A DNA stretch of 64,000 nucleotides, taken from Kiritimatiellia bacterium (GTDB lineage Bacteria; Verrucomicrobiota; Kiritimatiellia; RFP12; DVOR01). The DNA lies in the NCBI GenBank assembly GCA_017531445.1, contig JAFXKZ010000001.1, positions 68,534 through 132,533 on the forward strand, given 5' to 3'. The notes below the pieces were generated by a model. The model did not search any database and was not told the DNA's origin. It saw only the letters and a list, made by a program, of their open reading frames with translations. The translations under genes were made by a program, and so were the position numbers. Shown here piece by piece: positions 10,655 to 25,343 of this stretch (positions within the stretch are counted from its first letter, which is position 1; the number at the start of each line of letters is the position of its first letter).

Positions 10655-12106
10655 TTAATTTTCGCTCTTCATTTGCGGGAAGAGGATGACGTCACGGATA
10701 CATTCGGTGCCGGTCATGAACATGACGAGGCGGTCAATGCCGAGCCCGAGTCCGCCCGTTGGCGGCATACCATATTCCAATGCTTCGACAAAGTCCTGGT
10801 CGGTAGGTTCTGCATCTGCTTCTACCTGATTGGCGAAAGCGGCGCGTTGTGCTTCGGGATCGTTCTGCTCGGTGTAGCCGGGGCAGAGTTCTTTGCCGGC
10901 AACAACAAATTCAAAAACGTCCACGAGCGACGGATCATCCGGGCAGGCTTTCGCCAACGGTACATACTGCTTGGGGATGCGCGTAACGAAGGTTGGCTGC
11001 CGGAGTGTGCTTTCAATCATCTTGTCGTAGACTTCGTGGGAAAGGGTAACCATGTCGGTGATTTCATCAACAAGTTCCAATCCTGCATCGGCGGCTCGTG
11101 CCCGTGCGGTTGCATAGTCAAGCTCAAACCAATCAGCTCCCATCTTCTCCTTGATGAGTTCTTGCTGCGTTACTTCGCGATACGGCGGTTCAAAGTTGAT
11201 GATTTCGCCGTTTTCGCCATAGGGCACCTGGCGTGTTCCGAGCACGGTATCGCAGAGATAAGGGAGCATTCCCTCGATGATGTTTTTCATCGACGTGCGA
11301 TCGCCATAGGCTTCATAGACCTCAAGAACGGTGAATTCGGGATTGTGTGTACGGTCAATGCCTTCGTTGCGGAAGTCCTTTCCGAGTTCAAAGACTTTGT
11401 CAAAACCGCCGACAATCAGACGCTTCAAGTAGAGCTCCGGAGCGATACGCAACACCATCTCGCGGTCAAGGGCGTTGTGATGCGTTACGAAAGGCTTTGC
11501 GGCGGCTCCGCCGGCCTGCCCCTGCATGATGGGCGTTTCCACCTCAATAAATCCTTTTGAGGAGAGGTAGTTGCGGATACCCAGAAGGATTTTGTGACGC
11601 TTGTCAAAGCGTGCCCGGCTTTCGGGATTGGACATCAAGTCCAGATAACGACGGCGATAACGCTCTTCGGTATCCTGCAATCCATGCCACTTTTCCGGGG
11701 GCTGGCGGATCGCCTTGGAGAGGAGTGTCCATTCTTTGACTTCCACCGTCTTTTCGCCTGCTTGCGTGGTGAAAAGGGTGCCGTGGACGCCGATAAAGTC
11801 ACCCAAGTCGAGCAGTTTGGCGGCGTTGTAGGCTTCTTCTCCCAAAACATCGCGTTTGAGCAGCACCTGAAAGGCATCGGTGCCGTCATTGAGATGAATG
11901 AACATCAGTTTGCCCATACGCCGTTTGGTCATGATACGTCCGGCGACAGAGGCGGCTTTTCCTTCTTCAAATCCTGCACGTACTTCGCTCAAGTTGCCTG
12001 TGCGCGGGAAGGCTTTCCCATAGGGCGCATAACCGAGTTCTGCGAGTTTACGGCGGTTTTCAATCCGTTGTGCGCGGTATTGATCGGGTGTCTTTTCCTG
12101 AGCCAT
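10655..12106 (-). CDS. lysS: lysine--tRNA ligase (class II)
   Basis: Full-length LysS-like sequence (OB-fold N-terminus, class II motifs FRNEGID...HNPEFT, GGLGLGIDRLVM). Start at MAQEKTPDQY, 10 nt after the tkt stop, with an AAGGAA RBS. Confidence 0.92.
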   Translation of the reverse strand: MAQEKTPDQYRAQRIENRRKLAELGYAPYGKAFPRTGNLSEVRAGFEEGKAASVAGRIMTKRRMGKLMFIHLNDGTDAFQVLLKRDVLGEEAYNAAKLLDLGDFIGVHGTLFTTQAGEKTVEVKEWTLLSKAIRQPPEKWHGLQDTEERYRRRYLDLMSNPESRARFDKRHKILLGIRNYLSSKGFIEVETPIMQGQAGGAAAKPFVTHHNALDREMVLRIAPELYLKRLIVGGFDKVFELGKDFRNEGIDRTHNPEFTVLEVYEAYGDRTSMKNIIEGMLPYLCDTVLGTRQVPYGENGEIINFEPPYREVTQQELIKEKMGADWFELDYATARARAADAGLELVDEITDMVTLSHEVYDKMIESTLRQPTFVTRIPKQYVPLAKACPDDPSLVDVFEFVVAGKELCPGYTEQNDPEAQRAAFANQVEADAEPTDQDFVEALEYGMPPTGGLGLGIDRLVMFMTGTECIRDVILFPQMKSEN

Positions 12107-12116
12107 GAGGCGTTCC

Positions 12117-14120
12117 TTACTTGGAAAGGTAGTCATTGATGAGGGCGGAGAGCCCCTCGACAGTGAAGCCGAAATATTCAGCGAGCTTGCCGGCTGGGCC
12201 CGAGGCTCCGAAGCCGCCCATGGTCAGCGTGGTGCCTTCATCGCCGATATAACGCTCCCAACCGAAAGCCGATGCCGCTTCCACCGCGATACGTTTCTTC
12301 ACGGAAGGCGGCAACACGCGCTTGCGATAGGCGGCGTTTTGCGCTTCAAAGAGTTCCCAACTCGGCATGGAGACCACACGCAGGTTGCGCCCGTCGGTCT
12401 GTGCTGCTTCGAGGGCGAGGCTGACCTCCGAGCCCGAGGCAATCAGGATCGCTTCGGGCGTTTTGTCCGGATTGCGCTGCCAGAGGATATACGCGCCCCG
12501 GGCGGTTTCATCGGCAGAGGGATAGACAGTGCGGTCGATAACCGGCAGGTTCTGACGCGAAAGGAGAAGCGCAGTCGGGCCATGTTTGCGGCTGAGGGCC
12601 ACTTCCCACGCCACGGCGGTTTCGGTGGCATCTGCCGGACGCAACACGCACATATTGGGCATGGCGCGCATGGCCGGAAGCTGCTCGATCGGTTCGTGCG
12701 TGGGACCGTCTTCGCCCACATAGAAGCTGTCGTGCGTCAATACGTAGATTACCGGAAGCCCCATTAACGCTGCAACGCGCATGACCGGACGGCAATAGTC
12801 GCAGAAAACAAAGAAGGTGCCGCCAAAGGTGCGCAACCCACCATGCACGGTGATGCCGTTCATGATTGCCGCCATCCCCTGTTCACGCACACCGAAACGG
12901 AAGTTGCGCCCGGTAAAATCGCCCTTGGCAATATCTCCCATCCCGTTGAGATAGGTCATATTGGAAGGCGCAAGGTCGGCACTGCCGCCCACAAGCCATG
13001 GGACGACCGGCGCAATGGCATTGAGCACTTTTCCGGAGGCTACACGCGTAGAGACAGGCTTACCATCCCATACCGGCAGATGATCTTCCAGATCTTCCGG
13101 CAGGGTGTTCTTGAGGCAGGCTTCCCATGCGGCTTTGAGCTTGATATCGGCAAAGGCAGCCTTCGCCGTGCGCTTCCAGGCATTGCGCACACGCTTCATC
13201 TTTGCTGCACGGGCGGCAAAGAGCGAACGCACGGCTTCCGGCACGACAAACGTTTCATCGGGATTGAAGCCGAGTGCCTGCTTGGTCAGGCGCAACTCTT
13301 CCGCGCCCAGCGGCGCACCATGGCAGGAGGCCGAGTCGGCCTTGTTGGGTGACCCTTTGCCGATGGTGGTTTCGCAAATCACGAGCACGGGTTTGTCTTC
13401 CGACTTGGCGGCCTTGCGCAACGTGCGGTCAATGGCGGCAATATCGTGCCCATCGCAAGTGAACACACGCCAGCCATACCCCTCAAAACGCTTTTTGGTG
13501 TCGTCGCTCATCGTGATGTCCACGCGTCCCTCAATGGAGATACGGTTGGAATCATAAAGGAGGATGAGTTTGTTCAAGCCCAGATTTCCGGCCATGGAGC
13601 AGGCTTCATGCGAGATGCCCTCTTCCAGATCACCATCGCCGCAGGTCACCCAGGTGCGGTGATCAACGAGCGTGTGCTCCGGCGTGTTGAAGCGTGCGGC
13701 CATCATGCGTTCTGCAATCGCCATGCCCACACCGTTGGCAATACCCTGACCGAGCGGACCGGTGGTCGTCTCGACCCCCGGCACAATGCCGTATTCCGGG
13801 TGTCCGGGCGTCTTGGAACCGAGCTGACGGAACTGCTTGAGGTCGTCCATTGAAAGCGCGTGTCCGGAGAGGTGCAACAGGGCATACAGCAACGAAGAAC
13901 CGTGCCCGCCCGACATGACAAAGCGGTCGCGATCGGCCCATGCCGGGTCGCTTCCGCAGAGTTTGAGGTGGCGCAGCCACAATACGGCGGCGACATCGGC
14001 CAAGCCCAACGCCACCCCCGGATGGCCGGAATTGGCACTTTGAACTTCATCAGCGGCGAGGCAGCGCAACGTGTTGGCTGCCAAAAGCATCTCGTTAAGG
14101 TCAAGTTTGCTCATGTGCAT
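12117..14120 (-). CDS. tkt: transketolase
   Basis: 667 aa with SGHPG, GPLGQGIANGVGMA, GDGDLEEGISHEA and THDSFYVGEDGPTHEPIEQ motifs. Confidence 0.95.
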   Translation of the reverse strand: MHMSKLDLNEMLLAANTLRCLAADEVQSANSGHPGVALGLADVAAVLWLRHLKLCGSDPAWADRDRFVMSGGHGSSLLYALLHLSGHALSMDDLKQFRQLGSKTPGHPEYGIVPGVETTTGPLGQGIANGVGMAIAERMMAARFNTPEHTLVDHRTWVTCGDGDLEEGISHEACSMAGNLGLNKLILLYDSNRISIEGRVDITMSDDTKKRFEGYGWRVFTCDGHDIAAIDRTLRKAAKSEDKPVLVICETTIGKGSPNKADSASCHGAPLGAEELRLTKQALGFNPDETFVVPEAVRSLFAARAAKMKRVRNAWKRTAKAAFADIKLKAAWEACLKNTLPEDLEDHLPVWDGKPVSTRVASGKVLNAIAPVVPWLVGGSADLAPSNMTYLNGMGDIAKGDFTGRNFRFGVREQGMAAIMNGITVHGGLRTFGGTFFVFCDYCRPVMRVAALMGLPVIYVLTHDSFYVGEDGPTHEPIEQLPAMRAMPNMCVLRPADATETAVAWEVALSRKHGPTALLLSRQNLPVIDRTVYPSADETARGAYILWQRNPDKTPEAILIASGSEVSLALEAAQTDGRNLRVVSMPSWELFEAQNAAYRKRVLPPSVKKRIAVEAASAFGWERYIGDEGTTLTMGGFGASGPAGKLAEYFGFTVEGLSALINDYLSK

Positions 14121-14151
14121 AAACCTCTTTTTAAGGCAAAATCAAGCACAT

Positions 14152-14180
14152 AGTATAACAAAAAGTCGCATAGTTCACAA
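14152..14180 (-). promoter_or_regulatory. putative tkt-lysS promoter (TTGTGA-N17-TGtTATACT)
   Basis: Minus-strand -35 at 14180-14175. Extended -10 at 14160-14152. About 30 nt upstream of the tkt ATG. Confidence 0.5.
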
Positions 14181-14359
14181 ACCGCTGCCGCGTAACGCAC
14201 TGAAAACAGGTGTCCATTCATGGTGAAAACCGCAGGTGTGCCTATTTATTTCGGGCGTAGCCATCACCGCGGTGAACCTCCGGGGAAAACGTGGCTGCCA
14301 GTGCTTCGCTCGTCCGGTGCTGTGGAAGCACACGTGTATGCCGGGGGAAAGTGAAAATG

Positions 14360-14455
14360 AACATGGGCGAAACTGCGCGGGAAGATGGGCGAGAGTGCAT
14401 GGGGCACTTGGGCGGAGTTCCTCGCGCACATGGGCGAAGTTGAAAACGAAGGTGG
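14360..14455. repeat. cluster of REP-like 11-mers (three ATGGGCGA copies) plus AAGTTGAAAACGAAGGTGG module
   Basis: AACATGGGCGA at 14360, AGATGGGCGA at 14383, ACATGGGCGA at 14428. The module at 14437-14455 is 18/19 identical to 35167-35185. Confidence 0.75.
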
Positions 14456-14613
14456 CCGTGAAACTTTTTCTTGTGGCGCGGCAACGGAAAAACGGGTGCG
14501 CCGTTCGCGCTTTCCGCTGCGGCAACGTTGCGCCCTGATAGCCTGCTTTGGAGGGGAGATGACGCTTGCTGTTGCGGGGAGGTTTTGATAACCTATCAAT
14601 GGTTACCGGTCAT

Positions 14614-14685
14614 AAAAAAGCCCCATACGGAGTACGTACAGGGAAGTCTTTGCGACTGCGGCATATAGCCTTGTTGTGAAAAGAC
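14614..14685 (-). ncRNA. tracrRNA: tracrRNA (predicted primary transcript, ~72 nt; weak residual anti-repeat homology extends to ~14710)
   Basis: Minus strand reads GUCUUUUCACAAC-AAGGCUAUAUGCC-GCAGUCGCAAAGACUU-CCCUGUACGuacucCGUAUGGGG-CUUUUUU. The first 13 nt are the perfect complement of repeat nt 1-13 (GTTGTGAAAAGAC). They are followed by an AAGG + GGC/GCC nexus-like hairpin, an AGUC/GACU hairpin, and a 9-bp hairpin with U6 terminator. Confidence 0.8.
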
Positions 14686-14691
14686 AGTGTT

Positions 14692-14721
14692 ATTGTAGAG
14701 GATTTTGCCCGGGACTGTCAA
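14692..14721 (-). promoter_or_regulatory. tracrRNA promoter (TTGACA-N18-TACAAT)
   Basis: Minus-strand -35 TTGACA at 14721-14716. -10 TACAAT at 14697-14692. Predicted +1 near 14685. The -35 lies 14 nt from the cas9 ATG and abuts its GGAGG RBS. Confidence 0.6.
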
Positions 14722-14735
14722 ACGGAGGCTTTAAG

Positions 14736-17700
14736 ATGAAGCGTTTAGGGATCGATTTGGGCACGTCGTCTTTGGGTTGGGCGATTCTGGATGATGAACG
14801 GATGTTTGCTTCACCAATAGGGGACGCGGCAACGTCTCCCATTGACTGCGGCGTGGTGATTTTCCCGGAAGGAATGGAGCGGGATAAATCGGATAATCTG
14901 AAATCTCCGGCGGCCTCACGGCGCAGTGCACGGGCGATGCGGCGGTTGATTTATCGCCGGAAATTGCGGAAGTTCCACCTACTCCAAGTGCTGATTGAAA
15001 ACGGTATGTGCCCGCTCAGCGCGGAGGGATTGGCAAAATGGAAGGCCGAAGGGTGCTATCCGGTGCAGGAAGAAGCTTTTATGGCGTGGGTGCAGGCGAG
15101 CAATGACCACAATCCGTATGCCGATCGTGCGGCGGCGGCAGAGCGGGCGGTTGACCCCTTGACGCTTGGGCGGGCCCTCTATCATATCGCGCAAAGGCGT
15201 GGCTTCAAGAGCTCAAAAAAGGAGCAGTTGGAGGCTTTGCCCGGAGAGAGCAAAGCCGGGAAAAATGGGAAGAACTCCACGGAAGCAACGCAAACGAAGC
15301 AGGCAATTGATACGCTCACGCAAGCACTGGAGGCGGAATCGCTCACGTTGGGGCAATATTTTTACAAGCTGTTTTTGGCGAATGCCGCAGCGATTGCCGC
15401 TACGGGAGAATCGGGAACCTCAGAGAGAATCATCGAACGGATTCGCGGACGCAAGACCGGACGCATTGAGCATTATCAGAAAGAGTTTGAGGTGATTGCG
15501 GAGAAACAAGCGTTATCGTTGGAATTAAAGGAACGCCTGGCCTCAATTCTTTTCTTTCAGCGTCCGTTGCGGATTCAGCGTCATACGGTCGGGTATTGCG
15601 CACTTGAAAAGGGAAAATCGGCCAGAAAATATCGCCGCTGCTTAAAGAGTCATCCGACGTTTGAATACTACCGTGCGCTTTGCTTCCTTAATAATTTGCG
15701 CGTGGGTGAGACGTTGCAAGAGGGGAAAGACCGATTGCAAAATGGCGAGGGCACTCCTTTGTCGGCGGAAGAGCGCGCCAAAGTATTGGAGGCTTTGTGC
15801 GAAAAAGATAATTGCACAGTGGAAGAACTTTTCGGGAAGAAAAAGTCGCCTTTGGGCAAAAAGGTCTATACCAATTACCGCCCCTCGGATGATGCTCCCG
15901 TGATGCCGATCCGGGCACGCTTTATGAAGTTGGGGATCCCGGAGGCTCAATGGCAGATGGCGTTGAATGCCGCCATGGATTTTGAAGACCTTGAAAAGTT
16001 GATGGTTTGGGCACAGAAGCCGGAAACCCTTGGGCTCGAACCGAAAGCTGCGCGCACCTTTGCCCGGATGCGCTTTTCGACAGATCGCGCCGATTACAGT
16101 CTCCATGCAATCCGGAAAATCATTCCTTATCTGGAGCGGGGGTTTACGCTGCGCAAGGCCACTTTCTGTGCAAAATTGGGTGACATCATCCCGGCGTTTG
16201 AAGAGAAGCGCGAGCAAGTGTTGCAGGGTCTGTGCGACTGTGAGCGGAATTACGCGGAAGAAAAGGCGCGCCGCGTGCCGGGTGGGTATGGAAAAGTGAA
16301 TCCGCTGGAGACCTACCATTACAAGCGTTATCTCGCCGCGCAATGGGAAGTTTCGGAAGAAGCCTTCAAGCAGTTGTATGTGGATCTCACCGAGACCGAT
16401 GAGGCGAATCCGGTGTTGCCTCCGGTGAATCTGGGCGCGATCCGCAATCCGTTGAGCTGCCGTTCGCTGACGGTGTTGCGGCGTTTGGTGAATGCCTTGC
16501 GTAAAACGGGGAAGATTGATGCCCAAACGCAGATTTTCATTGAATTGGCGCACACGGTGAACAGTGCGAATGATTGCCGTGCGATTGAGCTGTATCAGAA
16601 GGAACAGAAAGCAAAACGTGAAGAAGCCGCTGCCGAGGTGCAGAACATCATTGACGAGCATCATCTTTCCATTACCGTTAATGAAGATACGATTTTACGC
16701 TATTTGCTTTGGGAAGAACAGGAGAAGTGTTGTGTCTACACAGGGCAACCCATCAGCCAGAAAGCGATCTTCACCGACTGTGATATTGAGCATACCATTC
16801 CGCGTTCGCGCGGGGGAACGAATGAACTTGAGAACCTTACCTTGTGTTTTCAACACTACAATCGCAATGTGAAAAAGGGAAAACTTCCCTCGGAGTGTCC
16901 CAATGCCACAGAAGCGTGGTTCGACCCGGAGACGAAGGAAGAATATCCGGCGTTGCAGATAAGTAAACCCTTGAAGCAGTGGCGCGATGCGTTGCATGGT
17001 TTGCAGAAAAAATTGGAGAAAAAACCGAAACGCGGCGGTGATGTTTCGATTTACAATCAGCAACGCATCAAATGGCTGTTGAGCAAGCGCAAGAGGGACT
17101 ATCTGAAAAAGAAATTGGAGACCTTTACAATCACGCGTGACAAGGTGGAAGAAAAAAGCTTCATTCCCCGACAGATGGTAGATACCGGCATCATCACTAC
17201 GCAGGCTGTCAAGTTTTTGAAGAGCCGCTATCGGCACGTTTATACGCGCAACGGTGCTGTTACTGCTGCCGCCCGAAAAGCGTGGGGGATTCAGAAAGAA
17301 GATGAGAAAAAAGCGCGTGTTGACCACATTCATCACGCGGTAGATGCGTGTGTGATTGCGGCACTGGATCCGAAAGCCTTTACGGAAATCTGCACACAGT
17401 TGGGCAAAAATGAGAAAACTACGCGCTGGAATGCGGTTGTGCCGCCGCCATATGAGGACTTTGCACGGCGGATCAATGCGGCGACCGAAAGCGTGTTGGT
17501 GCGGCATTTGCCGTTGAATCGTCAGGTGCGTCCGATTGGTAAGCGGCGGCAACGGGTGCCGCTATCGGTGAAAAAGCAATTGAAGTTTGAGAAGAAGGCA
17601 CCTGCAAAAGCGCAAAGAACCTTGGTGGTGCGTGGCAGTTTGCACAATGATACGCTTTATGGAAAGATCAAAATTGCAGGTGAAGAAACCGTTGTTTTGC

Positions 17701-18428
17701 GCAAGACGATCTCCGCACTTGGCAATGACCTGAAGAAAAATGTGGCAAATGCGGTGGACAAGGCCGTAAGAGAGGCCTTAGAGCAACAGATTGCAACGTA
17801 TGAGGCTCAGGGCATTGCGGTAAAAGACCTGCCCAATCAACGTTATCACCTCCCCTCCGGAATCCCCATCAAAAAGATTCGCGTCAAAATCAGCAAGCCT
17901 AAAAATCCGGATGCACTCCGCGCACAAGCCTTCGCCCCCGATAAGCCCGTCTATGGTTCCGGAAGCGATGCTTTGTGTCTTGAAATCGTCCAGAATAATA
18001 AAGGGGTGAGCGTTCCAATCTATCGAACGCTTCTTCAGGAGGTAAAAGAAACTCGATCGGATGAAGAAAAACGTGCGGTATCTTTCAAAATTTATCCCAT
18101 GCAACTTGCGCTTACGTATGAAAAATCTCCGGACGAATTAAAAATGCTTTCCGGTCGGGAATTGAGTAAGCGACTCTATGTTGTCCGAAAGGTGACAGAT
18201 GATGGTAGAACGACGCTTTACTACCATCGGGAAGCACGACGCTCTACGGTGTTGGGTGAAGAATTAAAAGCGATGGGGAAAAACAAAGAGGGTGCCTCCA
18301 ATGTTAATTTTTCAAGCCCTGAACCATTGCTGCTGGTCACCAAAGGCGTCTTCCTGGAGCATATGCTCTTTGAAGGCGTTCACTTCACGTTGTCAATGGA
18401 TGGTAAAATCGAGTGGATTGATGATTAA
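14736..18428 (+). CDS. cas9: CRISPR-associated endonuclease Cas9, type II-C (1230 aa)
   Basis: RuvC-I MKRLGIDLGTSSLGWAIL, bridge helix SRRSARAMRRLIYRRKLRKF, RuvC-II IFIELAH, HNH CDIEHTIPRSRGGTNELENLTLC..NRNVKKG, RuvC-III HHAVDACVIA. GGAGG RBS at 14724-14728. The track ORF start at 14676 is rejected because it lies in the tracrRNA anti-repeat. Confidence 0.95.
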   Translation: MKRLGIDLGTSSLGWAILDDERMFASPIGDAATSPIDCGVVIFPEGMERDKSDNLKSPAASRRSARAMRRLIYRRKLRKFHLLQVLIENGMCPLSAEGLAKWKAEGCYPVQEEAFMAWVQASNDHNPYADRAAAAERAVDPLTLGRALYHIAQRRGFKSSKKEQLEALPGESKAGKNGKNSTEATQTKQAIDTLTQALEAESLTLGQYFYKLFLANAAAIAATGESGTSERIIERIRGRKTGRIEHYQKEFEVIAEKQALSLELKERLASILFFQRPLRIQRHTVGYCALEKGKSARKYRRCLKSHPTFEYYRALCFLNNLRVGETLQEGKDRLQNGEGTPLSAEERAKVLEALCEKDNCTVEELFGKKKSPLGKKVYTNYRPSDDAPVMPIRARFMKLGIPEAQWQMALNAAMDFEDLEKLMVWAQKPETLGLEPKAARTFARMRFSTDRADYSLHAIRKIIPYLERGFTLRKATFCAKLGDIIPAFEEKREQVLQGLCDCERNYAEEKARRVPGGYGKVNPLETYHYKRYLAAQWEVSEEAFKQLYVDLTETDEANPVLPPVNLGAIRNPLSCRSLTVLRRLVNALRKTGKIDAQTQIFIELAHTVNSANDCRAIELYQKEQKAKREEAAAEVQNIIDEHHLSITVNEDTILRYLLWEEQEKCCVYTGQPISQKAIFTDCDIEHTIPRSRGGTNELENLTLCFQHYNRNVKKGKLPSECPNATEAWFDPETKEEYPALQISKPLKQWRDALHGLQKKLEKKPKRGGDVSIYNQQRIKWLLSKRKRDYLKKKLETFTITRDKVEEKSFIPRQMVDTGIITTQAVKFLKSRYRHVYTRNGAVTAAARKAWGIQKEDEKKARVDHIHHAVDACVIAALDPKAFTEICTQLGKNEKTTRWNAVVPPPYEDFARRINAATESVLVRHLPLNRQVRPIGKRRQRVPLSVKKQLKFEKKAPAKAQRTLVVRGSLHNDTLYGKIKIAGEETVVLRKTISALGNDLKKNVANAVDKAVREALEQQIATYEAQGIAVKDLPNQRYHLPSGIPIKKIRVKISKPKNPDALRAQAFAPDKPVYGSGSDALCLEIVQNNKGVSVPIYRTLLQEVKETRSDEEKRAVSFKIYPMQLALTYEKSPDELKMLSGRELSKRLYVVRKVTDDGRTTLYYHREARRSTVLGEELKAMGKNKEGASNVNFSSPEPLLLVTKGVFLEHMLFEGVHFTLSMDGKIEWIDD

Positions 18429-19326
18429 ACGCACGGTCTGTTTCTCAAATCCGGGGACGCTTCGTCTTCATTTGCGCCAGCTCGTCTGGCGGGGTGAGGA
18501 TGCGCGGGAAACCGCTGTACCGATAGAAGATCTCGGTGTGTTGATTTTGGAGTCACCGTTAATCACGGTAAGCACGGCTTTGTTGCAGGCACTTACGGAA
18601 GCGTGTGTAGCCGTTGTGCTATGCGATGCGGCGCATTTGCCGTCAGGCTATTTACTGCCGCAGGCGTCGCATACGTTGGCAAGTCGCATCTTGCGTCAGC
18701 AGATTGAGCTTTCCGATGCACGGGCAGGGATGTTGTGGCAGCAGATTGTGATTGCCAAAATCCGGAACCAAGCCGCCGTGATTCGGAGCATGGATGCAAC
18801 AAAAGCAGAGGAACTGCTTCAGATGGCAGCGCAGGTAAGGCGGGGCGATGTGACAAACCTTGAAGCGCAAGCTGCCAGACGTTATTTTGAAGCGTTCCCG
18901 ATTCCGGAAGACGTTTTCCATCGGTCGCGGTACGGGACAATGCCGAATGCCGCGCTGAATTACGGTTATGCAATTCTACGTGCTGCCGTGGCGCGTGCGC
19001 TGGTGGGGTCGGGCTTGAATCCGGAATTGGGATTGCACCATCGCAACCAATACAATCATTTCTGTCTGGCAGATGATGTGATGGAGCCGTATCGTCCATT
19101 CGTCGATAGGATTGTTTTGGAGCATCTGGACACCTTTGAAAAGACGGAATATCCCACCAAATTGTCCGCGAAAGGGAAGCAATTGTTACTACCATTCCTG
19201 ACAATGGATGTGCAGCTTGGAGCGGCGACACGACCGCTTTTTAATGCACTTCAATTGACCTCCGCATCGTTGGTACGGTGTGTTTGCAATCAGCAAAAAA
19301 CGCTTGAACTCCCCTCAATTCCATGA
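18421..19326 (+). CDS. cas1: CRISPR-associated endonuclease Cas1 (type II)
   Basis: MIKRTVCFSNPGTLRLHLRQLVW... with typical type II Cas1 features (NAALNYGYAILRAAVARAL, GLHHRNQYNHFCLADDVMEPYRPFVD). The ATG overlaps the cas9 stop (ATGATTAA). Confidence 0.92.
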   Translation: MIKRTVCFSNPGTLRLHLRQLVWRGEDARETAVPIEDLGVLILESPLITVSTALLQALTEACVAVVLCDAAHLPSGYLLPQASHTLASRILRQQIELSDARAGMLWQQIVIAKIRNQAAVIRSMDATKAEELLQMAAQVRRGDVTNLEAQAARRYFEAFPIPEDVFHRSRYGTMPNAALNYGYAILRAAVARALVGSGLNPELGLHHRNQYNHFCLADDVMEPYRPFVDRIVLEHLDTFEKTEYPTKLSAKGKQLLLPFLTMDVQLGAATRPLFNALQLTSASLVRCVCNQQKTLELPSIP

Positions 19327-19670
19327 GTGAAGTCGATTTCTCTGCGATCAATCATTACAAAGCGATGTGGCTTTACGCACTCTTTGACTTGCCGACCGAA
19401 ACGAAGAAGCAGCGGAAAAACGCCGCTCTTTTCCGAAAAGGACTTCTGCAGGACGGCTTTACAATGTTTCAATTCTCGGTTTACATCCGCCACTGTGCTT
19501 CCCGGGAAAATGCCGAAGTCCATATACGGCGTGTTCGCGCAATGACGCCGGAAGAAGGAAGAGTCGCGATTATAGCGGTAACCGATCGCCAATTTGATCA
19601 GATGGTTATTCTCTATGGCGCAAAAGAAAAACCGCCGCCGCCTGCGCCTCTGCAACTCGAACTCTTTTAA
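19323..19670 (+). CDS. cas2: CRISPR-associated endoribonuclease Cas2
   Basis: 115 aa. YKAMWLYALFDLPTETKKQRKNAALFRKGLLQDGFTMFQFSVYIRHC is a typical type II Cas2. ATGA overlap with cas1. Confidence 0.9.
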   Translation: MSEVDFSAINHYKAMWLYALFDLPTETKKQRKNAALFRKGLLQDGFTMFQFSVYIRHCASRENAEVHIRRVRAMTPEEGRVAIIAVTDRQFDQMVILYGAKEKPPPPAPLQLELF

Positions 19671-19679
19671 CTTTTCACT

Positions 19680-19726
19680 CAAAAAAGAACGCTTTCAACT
19701 CCATTTCAGGGAGATTGAAAGCGTTT
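19680..19726. terminator. bidirectional hairpin terminator between cas2 and the array
   Basis: 11-bp perfect stem AACGCTTTCAA (19687-19697) / TTGAAAGCGTT (19714-19724). On the plus strand it is followed by TTTT. On the minus strand it is followed by the better TTCTTTTTT tract. Confidence 0.65.
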
Positions 19727-19782
19727 TGAGATTTGATTTCACCTCTTAACTCATTCATACAATAAAGAAATATGACTTCAAT

Positions 19783-22588
19783 ATTGTATCAAATCCCAAG
19801 AGGGAGTCTTTTCACAACTATTCAACAATCATATTCAACTCCTTTTCTATTGTATCAAATCCCAAGAGGGAGTCTTTTCACAACTCCGTGGCGCATTTCG
19901 TTTTGATTCTCCGCATTGTATCAAATCCCAAGAGGGAGTCTTTTCACAACAGTGAGTCTTGCGTAGGAGTTTTAGAAACTATTGTATCAAATCCCAAGAG
20001 GGAGTCTTTTCACAACTCTGCGTAAATGTCAAGAAGATTCTGCTCCATTGTATCAAATCCCAAGAGGGAGTCTTTTCACAACTGCATAAGATAGGCGGCG
20101 TTGGTCGCGGAGATTGTATCAAATCCCAAGAGGGAGTCTTTTCACAACTCTTCGCGCACGAAATGAAAACTATCAACGATTGTATCAAATCCCAAGAGGG
20201 AGTCTTTTCACAACTGAGCGCATCCACTTCCTCTTGACGCGGCCATTGTATCAAATCCCAAGAGGGAGTCTTTTCACAACCACCAAGTAAATAATGGCAA
20301 AAAAATAGCATTGTATCAAATCCCAAGAGGGAGTCTTTTCACAACCTTCTCTTTCTCCCCGCGTTGGGGTAGTTGATTGTATCAAATCCCAAGAGGGAGT
20401 CTTTTCACAACTGGAACGCCCCGAACGCATCACTGTCCAGAATTGTATCAAATCCCAAGAGGGAGTCTTTTCACAACCACCTGGACGGGCAAGAACATCC
20501 CGTTGGCATTGTATCAAATCCCAAGAGGGAGTCTTTTCACAACGGTGTTTCAGTTCGGGCGATGCTTGAGAATATTGTATCAAATCCCAAGAGGGAGTCT
20601 TTTCACAACCAAAAGACATCCATCTGCACATCCCATGAGATTGTATCAAATCCCAAGAGGGAGTCTTTTCACAACCGGATACCGCCTATAAATACAGCGC
20701 GGAAGATTGTATCAAATCCCAAGAGGGAGTCTTTTCACAACCATGGCTGGGGACAACATTACCAAAGCACGATTGTATCAAATCCCAAGAGGGAGTCTTT
20801 TCACAACATACCTGCTTCGTTGCCGAACAGTCTGCCGATTGTATCAAATCCCAAGAGGGAGTCTTTTCACAACCATAAGGACAAACTTTAGCAGTTGCGG
20901 ATAATTGTATCAAATCCCAAGAGGGAGTCTTTTCACAACTGTCACTGGTGGCGCCGACCACGTATTTTCATTGTATCAAATCCCAAGAGGGAGTCTTTTC
21001 ACAACCTTCTCCAACTGCTGAATTTTTTTCAGTAGATTGTATCAAATCCCAAGAGGGAGTCTTTTCACAACCACTGCTGTTTTTCTCCTCCAGCAGTAGC
21101 AATTGTATCAAATCCCAAGAGGGAGTCTTTTCACAACCCGCGGCGCGTCTTGGACGCATATCAAAAAATTGTATCAAATCCCAAGAGGGAGTCTTTTCAC
21201 AACTTTTTGGCGTAACTGTGAAGTGTCAAGAAAATTGTATCAAATCCCAAGAGGGAGTCTTTTCACAACGGCCCGGGCAGAAAATACGTTATTTTGCTTA
21301 TTGTATCAAATCCCAAGAGGGAGTCTTTTCACAACGTTGCATGGCGTGAAGCGGTTCGCGCCTGCATTGTATCAAATCCCAAGAGGGAGTCTTTTCACAA
21401 CTGGGCACGTGGTCATCGATGCAAGCCTCCGATTGTATCAAATCCCAAGAGGGAGTCTTTTCACAACCGATATACCATTTGTTGTATCTTTTGACGAATT
21501 GTATCAAATCCCAAGAGGGAGTCTTTTCACAACCGATATACCATTTGTTGTATCTTTTGACGAATTGTATCAAATCCCAAGAGGGAGTCTTTTCACAACT
21601 AGTTCTCGCTGCGCCTCCCTACGGCACACATTGTATCAAATCCCAAGAGGGAGTCTTTTCACAACTACAGGTGCGTGGCACTAAGAAGTCGCTTCATTGT
21701 ATCAAATCCCAAGAGGGAGTCTTTTCACAACTGTACGCCGCCGTGGGAGACCCATGCGGAATTGTATCAAATCCCAAGAGGGAGTCTTTTCACAACGAAG
21801 AAGTAGGTGGTGTTGCGTATGTGTTAATTGTATCAAATCCCAAGAGGAAGTCTTTTCACAACTAATCGATTATTAACTCTTCTTTTCCGGACATTGTATC
21901 AAATCCCAAGAGGGAGTCTTTTCACAACAGTTTGCGCAGTTTGCACGTAACTGTTTGCATTGTATCAAATCCCAAGAGGGAGTCTTTTCACAACCGCATT
22001 GAACTTCAAAAAAATAGAACGCCTATTGTATCAAATCCCAAGAGGGAGTCTTTTCACAACAACGAGTGGGTAGACTGCGAGGCCACCATTATTGTATCAA
22101 ATCCCAAGAGGGAGTCTTTTCACAACTAGGCGGATTGGCGAAGCGTAGAGATTTCTATTGTATCAAATCCCAAGAGGGAGTCTTTTCACAACTCTTATTT
22201 ATTAGATTTGTTCGGCCCGGAAATTGTATCAAATCCCAAGAGGGAGTCTTTTCACAACTTCTATTCTGATGAATACGCAGGCTTGCTCATTGTATCAAAT
22301 CCCAAGAGGGAGTCTTTTCACAACCCGGTGACAGGGTCAATGCCGTTTTCGTCAATTGTATCAAATCCCAAGAGGGAGTCTTTTCACAACCCAAAGCAAT
22401 GGCAATTAAAGAAAATGCTAATTGTATCAAATCCCAAGAGGGAGTCTTTTCACAACGTATGTCATCACATCTAATGCCGCAGCCCTATTGTATCAAATCC
22501 CAAGAGGGAGTCTTTTCACAACTTTTGCGTTTGACCTCAAGTGCGCCCGCCCATTGTATCAAATCCCAAGAGGGAGTCTTTTCTCAGT
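19783..22588 (-). CRISPR. CRISPR array with 43 repeats and 42 spacers (36-bp repeat; 40 spacers of 30 bp, 2 of 29 bp)
   Basis: Plus-strand repeat is ATTGTATCAAATCCCAAGAGGGAGTCTTTTCACAAC with 66-bp periodicity. Every unit was parsed by hand. R32 (21827-21862) carries one SNP. Terminal R43 (22553-22588) has 3 changes in its outer 5 nt. Spacers 26 and 27 are identical. Minus-strand orientation is inferred from the canonical II-C GTTGT...ACAAT form, tracrRNA complementarity and the TGaTACAAT embedded promoter. Confidence 0.97.
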
Positions 22589-22765
22589 AGTTTTCTCAGT
22601 AGAGAGTAATAAAATTATTAATCTATAAATAAATAATGGAGGGGGACAAGGAGTGAGATCGGTAACTTATGGCAAAAGGGTGTGTGCGGCAATGCTTTTC
22701 ATGAGAAAGGAGGTTCTTTTATGGAGCGGCTGAATGCGTTATTCTTTTTTAGACGGGGTGGTTTG

Positions 22766-22774
22766 TGGTATAAT
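22766..22774 (+). promoter_or_regulatory. putative leuS extended -10 (TGgTATAAT)
   Basis: Read directly, about 35 nt upstream of the leuS ATG. No clear -35. Confidence 0.4.
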
Positions 22775-22808
22775 GTACAGCGTTTTTTTACTTGAAGGAA
22801 GGTCTATC

Positions 22809-25343
22809 ATGATGGAAGAAAAATATCCGTTTCACGCGATTGAACCCAAGTGGCAGAAGTTTTGGGATGAGAATGGGACGTTTCGCTGTGATGCGCAGGA
22901 TGATTCCCGTCCGAAGTTTTATTGCTTGACGATGTTCCCTTATCCCAGTGGTCATATGCACGTGGGGCATGGGCGTAACTACATCATGGGGGATGTGATT
23001 ACGCGTTATAAGAAGATGACGGGGTATAATGTGCTTTCGCCAATGGGATGGGACAGCTTCGGATTGCCGGCGGAGAATGCAGCCAAGAAGTTTCATGTGC
23101 ATCCACACAAGTGGACGATTGAGAATATTCAGGAGATGAAGCGACAGGTGCGCAGTTGGGGGGTCGGTTACGATTGGGAGCGTGAAATCGCAACATGCCA
23201 TCCGGATTATTACAAGTGGACGCAGTGGGTGTTCTTGCAGGCATATAAACTGGGGGTGGCCTATCAGAAAGAATCTCCGGTCAACTGGTGCCCGCTGTGC
23301 ACGAATCTGGCGAATGAGGAAGTCACGGCTGATGGACATTGTGATCGTTGCGGACGTCCGGTAGAGAAGAAGAATCTCAAGCAATGGTTCTTCAGAATCA
23401 CTCAGTATGCCGATCGATTGTTAAAGGATTTGGATTTACTTGAGGGGTGGCCGGAGAAGGTTCGCCAGATGCAGGCCAACTGGATTGGAAAATCAGAGGG
23501 GGCAAAGGTCGTCTTCAAAGTGACCGAGACCGGGGATGAATGCCCGGTATATACGACGCGCCCGGATACGATTTTCGGTGTGACGTTTATGGCAATCGCG
23601 CCGGACAATCCGCTGCTGCAAAAGTTGCTTCCCGGTTCTGAGCGGGAAGCGGAAGTGCGCACATTCATTGATAAGCTTGCCAATATTCCTGCTGCGGAGC
23701 GTTTCTCTGATGCCACGGCGAAAGAGGGCGTCTTTACCGGTTTCCACGTGACCAATCCCTATAATGGTGATCGCGATATTGAATTGTGGGTGACGAATTA
23801 TGTAGTCTCTGATTCCGGAACGGGAATTGTGATGGCGGTGCCAACGCATGATCAGCGAGACTGGGACTTTGCCACGAAGTATGATATCGCCAAGAAGATT
23901 GTCATTCAAAACGCTGAAGGCACTCTTGATTTGGCAACGATGACGGCGGCCTACGTGGAAGATGGCGTATTGGTGAATTCCGGTGCCTTTGATGGCATGG
24001 CCAATCGTGAGGCAATTAAGGCAATCATCGCCGATGGCACAGAAAAGGGATTTGCCGAGGCGACAACCAATTTCCGTATTCGTGATTGGAATGTGGCGCG
24101 TCAACGTTATTGGGGGGCACCGATTCCGATTGTGCACTGTCCGCACTGTGGTGCAGTGCCTGTGCCGGAAGATCAACTGCCCGTGCGTCTTCCGGATGAT
24201 GTGGATTATGATGGTGATCAGGGGAATCCTCTGGCGCGGCATGAAGGCTTTGTTAATACTACCTGCCCGAAGTGTGGTGCACCGGCAAAGCGTGAGACCG
24301 ATACGCTCGCCCAATGGTTGTGCTCGTGCTGGTATTTCTTGCGTTACATTGATGCCCGGAATGAGGCTGCGCCCTTTGATAAGGCATTGGTGGACAAGTG
24401 GATGCCAGTGGATCAGTATATCGGTGGCGTAGAGCATGCGGTATTGCACTTGCTCTACTCACGCTTTGTGGTAAAAATCCTCAATGATGCAGGGGCATTG
24501 GACTGTGTAGAGCCGTTTAAGGCGTTGTTTACGCAGGGGATGATTTGCAAACGTTGCGAAAAAGATGATGGCAAATACGTCAAGGGCAAACTCTACAAGA
24601 TGTCGAAATCGGTGGGGAACGTTGTCTCTCCGGACGAACTGATTAAGACGTATGGTGCAGATACTGTTCGCCTGTACACGCTCTTTATCGGACCGCCGGA
24701 ATTGGATGCCGAGTGGCAGGACGCTGCAGTGCAGGGGCCCTATCGCTTCCTTTGCCGTCTGTGGAAGCGTGCTTATGATGCCAAGTCCATTGTACCGGAG
24801 CAGGATGTCGCGGTGCAGATCGACGCACTTACGCCGGTGGAACGCGATCTTTATCGCAAGTTGCACCAGACTTTGGCCGGTGTGACTGATTCCATTGAGC
24901 ACGGATTCCGTTTCAATACGGCCATTGCGCAGTTGATGGAATTGATGAATGTTCTGGATAAAGCCAAGATTGATGCGACTTCGTCCGATGCGGCGAAGGC
25001 GTTACTGCGTGAGACGATTGTAACAATCGCGCGGATGATGGCTCCGATTACGCCGCACATTGCCGAAGAGTTGTGGCAGGCGTTTGGCTGTACACCTGCC
25101 GGTGTGATGAGTGCCGGTTGGCCCACAGTGAATGCGGAAGCCTTGAAGGAAGATTCGCTTCAAATTATTCTGCAGGTGAATGGCAAGATGCGCGGTAAAA
25201 TCATGGTGCCCGCAGGCATCGGCAAGGAGGAATTGGAGGTTCTCGCCCGTGATTCTGCTGATGTGAAGCGCTTTACCGATGGACAAACCATCGTCAAAGT
25301 GATTGTGGTGCCCGGGAAGCTCGTCAACATCGTGGTGAAATAA
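22809..25343 (+). CDS. leuS: leucine--tRNA ligase
   Basis: [25 protein letters not shown] (HIGH motif), KMSKS, CP1 editing domain. Start at the internal Met of track ORF 22734. Confidence 0.95.

Follow-up and report, generated by a model that had tools for sequence, protein, structure and literature searches.

The stretch of DNA analysed here (the window; 64,000 nt) contains a chromosomal CRISPR-Cas9 locus, the main features of which are as follows.

14724..14728, plus strand: Shine-Dalgarno sequence of cas9, GGAGG
14736..18428, plus strand: cas9, encoding 1230 amino acids (TIGR01865 at 393.7 bits; HNH and RuvC_III domains)
18292..19326, plus strand: cas1, given as the limits of its open reading frame (cas1_NMENI, TIGR03639, at 264.9 bits)
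19323..19670, plus strand: cas2 (TIGR01573 at 63.2 bits)
19681..19725, minus strand: hairpin (19725..19688) followed by CUUUUUU, between the array and cas2 (fold z-score −4.8)
19783..22588, minus strand: CRISPR array of 43 repeats of 36 nt with 29–30-nt spacers (functional reading of the repeat, GTTGTGAAAAGACTCCCTCTTGGGATTTGATACAAT)

The true start of cas1 is probably near 18425 because the HMM match begins at residue 46 of the open reading frame. cas9, cas1, and cas2 formed an unbroken run from 14736 to 19670. The array began at 19783, which left no space for a further gene. Since the locus has neither csn2 nor cas4, it was assigned to type II-C. Genes for a class II aminoacyl-tRNA synthetase and a transketolase were located upstream of the locus, and a gene for leucyl-tRNA synthetase was located downstream.

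The original prediction held that GTTGTGAAAAGAC at 14673–14685 (plus strand) is the only match to the repeat outside the array, and our counts agree. GTTGTGAAAAGAC occurred in 42 copies in the array (minus strand) and in a single copy outside it, where the chance expectation for the 64-kb window is 0.07. In a blastn-short comparison of the whole repeat with the array-masked window, the best match was this 13-mer (E = 0.021), and the remaining matches were exact matches of 10 nt or shorter with E values of at least 1.3. On the minus strand, this site is complementary to nt 1–13 of the repeat in 13 of 13 Watson-Crick pairs, as had been claimed. We also scanned the whole window with RNAduplex using both orientations of the repeat. 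The site ranked third of 6092 scanned segments at −28.0 kcal/mol, a score that includes a 9-bp second segment in the promoter region; the other top sites were fragmented, G·U-rich duplexes at least 20 kb away, and the energy alone was not discriminating.

The 13-mer is followed on the minus strand by the elements expected of a tracrRNA, and the region was annotated as follows.

14692..14721, minus strand: tracrRNA promoter, TTGACA (14721..14716)-N18-TACAAT (14697..14692), matching 11 of 12 consensus positions
14614..14685 (read from 14685 down to 14614), minus strand: predicted tracrRNA of ca. 72 nt, from the match to covariance model R1 (see below) and the bracketing promoter and terminator
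14673..14685, minus strand: anti-repeat GUCUUUUCACAAC, 13 nt, perfect complement of repeat nt 1–13 (GUUGUGAAAAGAC)
14659..14672, minus strand: nexus AAGGCUAUAUGCCG with a GGC/GCC stem, a helix invariant in 71 distinct homologues
14645..14657, minus strand: hairpin 2, AGUC-GCAAA-GACU, with two-sided changes at three of four pairs (e.g., AGUC/GACU versus AGGU/ACCU)
14614..14643, minus strand: intrinsic terminator CCCUGUACG-UACUC-CGUAUGGGG, then C and U6 (14619..14614), from the terminator scan

The order read from the sequence, GUCUUUUCACAAC-AAGGCUAUAUGCCG-C-AGUCGCAAAGACU-U-CCCUGUACG-UACUC-CGUAUGGGG-CUUUUUU, was that of the original prediction, which had described AAGG and a GGC/GCC nexus right after the anti-repeat, the AGUC-GCAAA-GACU hairpin, and a 9-bp terminator hairpin with a CUUUUUU tail. 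The terminator scan identified the same stem at 14643..14621, in which nine pairs close a 5-nt loop ahead of a U tract. This stem contains U·G and G·U pairs, which are mismatches when read on the plus strand. Co-folding of the repeat with the tracrRNA, proposed as a check of the prediction, gave exactly the described architecture: a 13-bp duplex, the nexus, the AGUC/GACU hairpin, and the terminator. The nexus stem and the terminator also formed in the fold of the part downstream of the anti-repeat. In the minimum-energy fold of the free tracrRNA, GUCUUU at the 5′ end of the anti-repeat paired with AAAGAC and disrupted hairpin 2. This alternative fold could mask the anti-repeat; its conservation was judged by eye only.

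The predicted gene lies 51 nt upstream of the cas9 start on the opposite strand, within the 615-nt gap between the transketolase gene and cas9, and its in-silico promoter and Rho-independent terminator are both on the anti-repeat strand. The near-consensus promoter was absent from the original prediction, which had placed the tracrRNA at 14614–14712. The portion 14614–14685 stood; the portion 14686–14712 consists of the promoter spacer and −10 box and is not RNA. With 6 nt between the end of the −10 box and G14685, transcription is expected to begin at the first base of the anti-repeat and to yield an RNA of 72 nt. On this spacing, the 5′ end of the tracrRNA is probably G14685 to within 3 nt on either side. 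A promoter scan of 14100–15100 found no other minus-strand promoter-like site upstream. An Rfam scan of 12000–24000 at E ≤ 10 returned four chance-level matches and no tracrRNA family. In the ca. 490-nt non-coding gap between the transketolase gene and the tracrRNA terminator, five imperfect direct repeats with 22–23-nt spacing and the core ACATGGGCGAA were found at 14339–14461 (plus strand); these could be regulator binding sites.

The relatives of this Cas9 were encoded by uncultured Kiritimatiellae, Lentisphaerae, and ‘Ca. Spyradenecus’ from guts and rumens, with 36–72% identity and one cluster with 98% identity. More distant relatives (30–34%) were found in Bacteroidales such as Alistipes, Prevotella, and Rikenella. 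A first motif search of 79 fetched loci located the element 60–140 nt upstream of cas9 on the opposite strand. MAFFT alignments misaligned the variable hairpins, and RNAalifold consequently saw only the invariant nexus helix. We instead used Infernal with a covariance model (R1) built from five relatives as the seed and a hand-annotated structure, leaving the window sequence out. R1 matched exactly once in each of 73 out of 80 sources, namely the window and 72 of the 79 related loci, always just upstream of cas9 and on the strand opposite to it. The window match was 14612..14685 on the minus strand (79.5 bits, E = 1.4e-14) and was the sole match in the 64 kb.

Among the 71 distinct sequences, aligned by fitting to R1, which favours the structure, 96.5% of the cells formed standard pairs compared with ca. 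45% when the partners were slid by 1–3 columns. Two-sided changes were seen at 13 of 17 pairs, and the covariation score was 0.583, which none of 500 shuffles reached, against 0.147 for shuffled alignments. The nexus helix was invariant, hairpin 2 covaried at three of its four pairs, and the terminator did so at 10 of 10 model pairs. Conserved G·U and U·G pairs (e.g., columns 93/107 and 95/105) would be A·C mismatches on the plus strand. As an independent check, 14 homologues were folded singly, and all had the same three-hairpin tail. The three helices downstream of the anti-repeat, namely the nexus and the 3′ hairpins, are thus conserved as structure.

The pairing between the repeat and the anti-repeat was also kept, in all 50 loci with a usable array. 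In L001/L004, the two sides had changed together (GCUGUAAAAAGAC with GUCUUUUUACAGC), and further compensatory cases were L047 (GUUGCGG), L038 (..GGCUUGCUG..), L071 (GAUAUAG), and L016 (GUUGUGUU). The tracrRNA always paired with the GUUG end of the repeat, whether the array was on the cas9 strand or on the opposite one. The array was opposite to cas9 in most Kiritimatiellae-type loci, including the window, and on the cas9 strand in L002/L003/L007 and Bacteroidales. Only the proposed strands accommodate the G·U pairs of the duplex (repeat G1 with a tracrRNA U) and of the stems.

The length of the duplex differed within the family:

Bacteroidales: duplex of 17–25 bp, with a conserved UU·UU internal mismatch after 8 bp
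Other Kiritimatiellae-type loci: duplex of 14–18 bp, with the same UU·UU mismatch
Window clade (the window, L001/4, L002/3, and L022; L007 has 14): duplex of 13 bp

The 13-bp duplex was uninterrupted in the window, L001/4, and L002/3 (with two G·U pairs in L002/3) and had an internal 2-nt mismatch in L022. It is shorter than the duplexes of characterised natural systems. We measured the distance from the end of the −10 box to the first paired base in Kiritimatiellae/Lentisphaerae-type loci. It was 5–8 nt in the 15 loci that had both a strong −35/−10 match (score of 9–11 of 12) and a usable array, and 3, 4, and 11 nt in three weaker-scoring loci. In Bacteroidales, a TAnnTTTG motif ended 6–16 nt (mostly 9–14 nt) before the first paired base. 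Judged from these spacings, the primary transcript appears to begin at the anti-repeat, or no more than a few nucleotides from it, in the whole family. In ten more distant Kiritimatiellae loci (L006, L010, L012, L014–L018, L035, and L036), the arrays were ca. 5 kb downstream of cas9 and the repeats ended with CAGT, CACT, ATATT, or GACATC. These repeats carried no −10 box, the duplexes were 14–18 bp, and the tracrRNAs had no 5′ extension.

Among known systems, the closest scaffolds were those of the Rsp, Jpa, Ghe, and Cme3 Cas9s, for which tracrRNAs, working sgRNA designs, and experimentally determined PAMs are given in Supplementary Data 2 of Gasiunas et al. (2020, Nat Commun 11:5512; PMC7606464). 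Rsp Cas9 is from Rikenellaceae sp., has 1213 amino acids, and belongs to clade VIII (PMC7606464). It showed 40% identity with the window Cas9 over the N-terminal 356 aligned residues. The four tracrRNAs and the window RNA share CACAAY-AAGGCNAUNNGCCG, a short hairpin, and a terminator hairpin in the same order, and the nexus motif AAGGCUAUAUGCCG of the window is present in all four. The GUACUCC terminator loop is common to Rsp and the window. Rsp-type systems and the window also have in common 36-nt repeats starting with GUUGUG and homologous Cas9s of similar size, and R1 joins the window with Bacteroidales loci whose repeats are Rsp-like. In pairwise alignments, the window RNA had 49–54 identical positions of ca. 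80 with these tracrRNAs, with the core motif intact. It aligned much worse to the S. pyogenes-type scaffold, while the N. meningitidis tracrRNA gave a similar count of identical positions but in a longer, gap-rich alignment. On these comparisons, the window RNA belongs with the Rsp-like scaffolds of clades VIII and IX of Gasiunas et al. Hairpin 2 is AGUC/GACU in the window and AGGU/ACCU in the Rsp type. The Rsp co-fold showed an 8 + 9 bp layout, as in the Bacteroidales relatives, whereas the window clade has a 13-bp duplex (uninterrupted in the window) and a sigma-70 promoter that ends 6 nt before it. Since this class of RNA is known and validated in vitro for relatives, the window gene is a new member of that class. 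Full-text search for the strings AAGGCUAUAUGCCG and AAGGCTATATGCCG returned no paper, and the motif was found only in the supplementary table of Gasiunas et al. A literature search on Kiritimatiellae Cas9 or short anti-repeats found nothing relevant to Cas9.

The window also resembles the type II-C system of N. meningitidis (Nme). Both have cas9–cas1–cas2, an array opposite to the cas operon, 36-nt repeats starting with GUUGU and ending with an extended −10 sequence (TGCTACAAT in Nme and TGATACAAT in the window), and ...ACAAU-AAGGC... at the junction of the duplex and the nexus. In contrast, the Nme anti-repeat is ca. 24 nt or longer with a 5′ extension, compared with 13 nt at the predicted 5′ end in the window, and the 3′ scaffolds are not alignable past the nexus. 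The Nme tracrRNA gene is located elsewhere in its locus, not as in the window. RNase III cuts the Nme tracrRNA, though this cut is dispensable (Zhang et al. 2013, as summarised in PMC5965381). Like the window, S. pyogenes has its tracrRNA gene upstream of cas9 on the opposite strand, and the RNA carries a nexus of the AAGGCUAGUCCG type together with 3′ hairpins and a terminator. Unlike the window, the S. pyogenes system is of type II-A with csn2, and it has a 25-nt anti-repeat, two tracrRNA promoters, obligatory co-processing by RNase III, and an array on the cas9 strand. Its long and short primary tracrRNAs arise from the two promoters (Deltcheva et al. 2011, as summarised in PMC5965381), and the complementarity cleaved by RNase III is ca. 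25 nt (PMC5965381). Chylinski et al. (2013; PMC3737331) list four typical places for a tracrRNA gene, and the arrangement in the window, upstream of cas9 and on the other strand, is among them. The nexus sequences that the original prediction had given for comparison, AAGGCUAGUCCG (S. pyogenes type) and AAGGCCGUCUG (N. meningitidis), match those printed in Supplementary Data 2 of Gasiunas et al. (2020).

We considered three other explanations of the element. If the 13-mer were a chance match beside an unrelated terminator, its presence would be only moderately rare, given a blastn E value of 0.021 for the 13 nt alone. Its conservation in 72 other loci, with covariation and with the repeat and anti-repeat changing together, refutes this explanation, to which we give practically no weight. 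The element could also be read on the plus strand, as a degenerate orphan repeat or a structured 5′ UTR of cas9, with no minus-strand RNA made. GTTGTGAAAAGAC is indeed repeat-like on that strand, and the cas9 mRNA must start in or upstream of this region because the −35 box of the tracrRNA promoter is 2 nt from the Shine-Dalgarno sequence. However, the promoter and the U-tract terminator are found only on the minus strand, many of the conserved G·U and U·G pairs become A·C mismatches on the plus strand, and the scaffold is homologous to tracrRNAs that are used in the minus-strand orientation. A plus-strand element is therefore very improbable.

The third explanation accepts a tracrRNA but has it start further upstream, inside or near the cas9 start, so that a bipartite duplex would form from the 13 bp and from AGUCCCGGG (14716..14708) with repeat nt 19–27, one that RNase III could cleave as it does in canonical type II systems. 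RNAduplex gave this 13 + 9 bp interaction at −28.0 kcal/mol when 14661–14720 was allowed, and the long and short tracrRNAs made from two promoters in S. pyogenes are a precedent for a long form (PMC5965381). On the other hand, the additional 9 bp include three G·U pairs, require a 22-nt bulge, and overlap the −35 box and the promoter spacer. In the relatives, complementarity stops at or near the 13th–15th nucleotide, and nothing equivalent is conserved upstream. A second minus-strand promoter was not found upstream within 14100–15100, and the distance from the −10 box to the first paired base is nearly fixed (5–8 nt in the 15 strong loci and 3–11 nt overall). The bipartite duplex was rejected because of its location in the promoter and its lack of conservation, and we regard a longer tracrRNA as unlikely. 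The minus strand from 14685 to 14614 is thus very probably the tracrRNA gene of this type II-C locus, in line with the original prediction. This reading draws on the order of the elements, the promoter, conservation in 72 related cas9 loci, compensatory changes, and homology to catalogued tracrRNAs.

The tracrRNA also bears on the direction in which the array is read. Since its strand is fixed by the promoter, the terminator, and the G·U pairs, the crRNA must contain GUUGUGAAAAGAC. An extended −10 sequence, TGATACAAT (of the form TGnTAnAAT), was found at the minus-strand 3′ end of all 43 repeats, which suggests by analogy with N. meningitidis and C. jejuni that these boxes act as repeat-internal promoters. 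In these two species, promoters embedded in the repeats drive crRNA transcription (PMC5965381), and in both, as in F. novicida, the array is documented to be transcribed against the direction of the cas operon (PMC3737331). The hairpin and U tract at 19681..19725 are consistent with termination of minus-strand transcription of the array. This hairpin could instead end the cas operon on the plus strand, or act in both directions. Transcription of the array on the minus strand, as originally proposed, is supported by the G·U-containing pairings, the extended −10 sequence in every repeat, and the minus-strand terminator past the array.

At the end of the array far from cas2, a degenerate repeat (22553–22588) carries ACTGAG in place of GTTGTG. 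Because it keeps the TGATACAAT box, it would provide the upstream-most promoter in the minus-strand reading. This end of the array is the upstream end if crRNAs are read on the minus strand. The degenerate repeat adjoins a 60-nt AT-rich stretch in which ACTGAGAAAA is duplicated (22553–22650 for the two together). Repeat nt 14–25 can form a mini hairpin, UCCC-UCUU-GGGA (e.g., 19794–19805), that directly abuts the 13-bp duplex. L002/L003 have a weak hairpin of different sequence (UCUU/AAGA) at the same position, and it is absent in more distant relatives.

On the plus strand, we looked for a consensus cas9 promoter upstream of the gene and found none. Together with the position of the tracrRNA −35 box (14721..14716), 2 nt from the cas9 Shine-Dalgarno sequence, this indicates that the 5′ end of the cas9 mRNA probably falls in the tracrRNA gene or upstream of it. 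The cas9 mRNA may accordingly be antisense to the tracrRNA. TGTTATTGT on the plus strand (14688–14696) is the mirror of the tracrRNA −10 box and might serve as a weak extended −10 sequence.

Based on these features, we propose the following pathway of guide RNA biogenesis. The tracrRNA would be transcribed divergently from cas9, from the near-consensus sigma-70 promoter to the intrinsic terminator, as an RNA of ca. 72 nt (14685 to ca. 14614). Its first 13 nt would form a duplex with repeat nt 1–13 in the minus-strand crRNAs, for which the form spacer-GUUGUGAAAAGAC(UCCCUCUUGGGA...) is expected. The Cas9-binding scaffold is predicted to consist of the nexus and the two 3′ hairpins. Transcription of the crRNAs likely initiates at the repeat-borne TGATACAAT boxes, as it does in Neisseria meningitidis. 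The mini hairpin in the repeat might cap the duplex or set the 3′ end of the crRNA.

A 13-bp duplex at the predicted 5′ end, far below the ca. 25 nt of complementarity cleaved by RNase III in S. pyogenes (PMC5965381), suggests in combination with repeat-internal promoters that guides could mature without RNase III. With only 13 bp and no 5′ extension, it is conceivable, at somewhat less than even odds, that RNase III co-processing is unused. More tentatively, the tracrRNA of the window clade may be born mature, as a leaderless primary transcript of ca. 72 nt whose first base is the first of the 13-nt anti-repeat, and together with crRNA promoters in each repeat this would leave no RNase III step. 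Since the repeats of the more distant Kiritimatiellae lack the −10 box, the family as a whole cannot be processing-free.

These results supply the predicted guide RNA component for an uncharacterised Cas9 of 1230 amino acids from an uncultured gut or rumen lineage of Kiritimatiellae. With the tracrRNA identified, an sgRNA can be designed directly from GUUGUGAAAAGAC, a GAAA loop, and the 72-nt tracrRNA. The tracrRNA also fixes the orientation of the array, which is needed for reading the spacers and inferring the side of the PAM. A search that requires long complementarity of the anti-repeat, like the workflow of Chylinski et al. (2013), would be prone to overlook or down-rank one of 13 nt, whereas R1 recovered the element in 73 of 80 sources. 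The short anti-repeat at the start of the transcript illustrates, in a modest natural case, that a Cas9 may need very little duplex. It may also point to a pathway that is free of processing.
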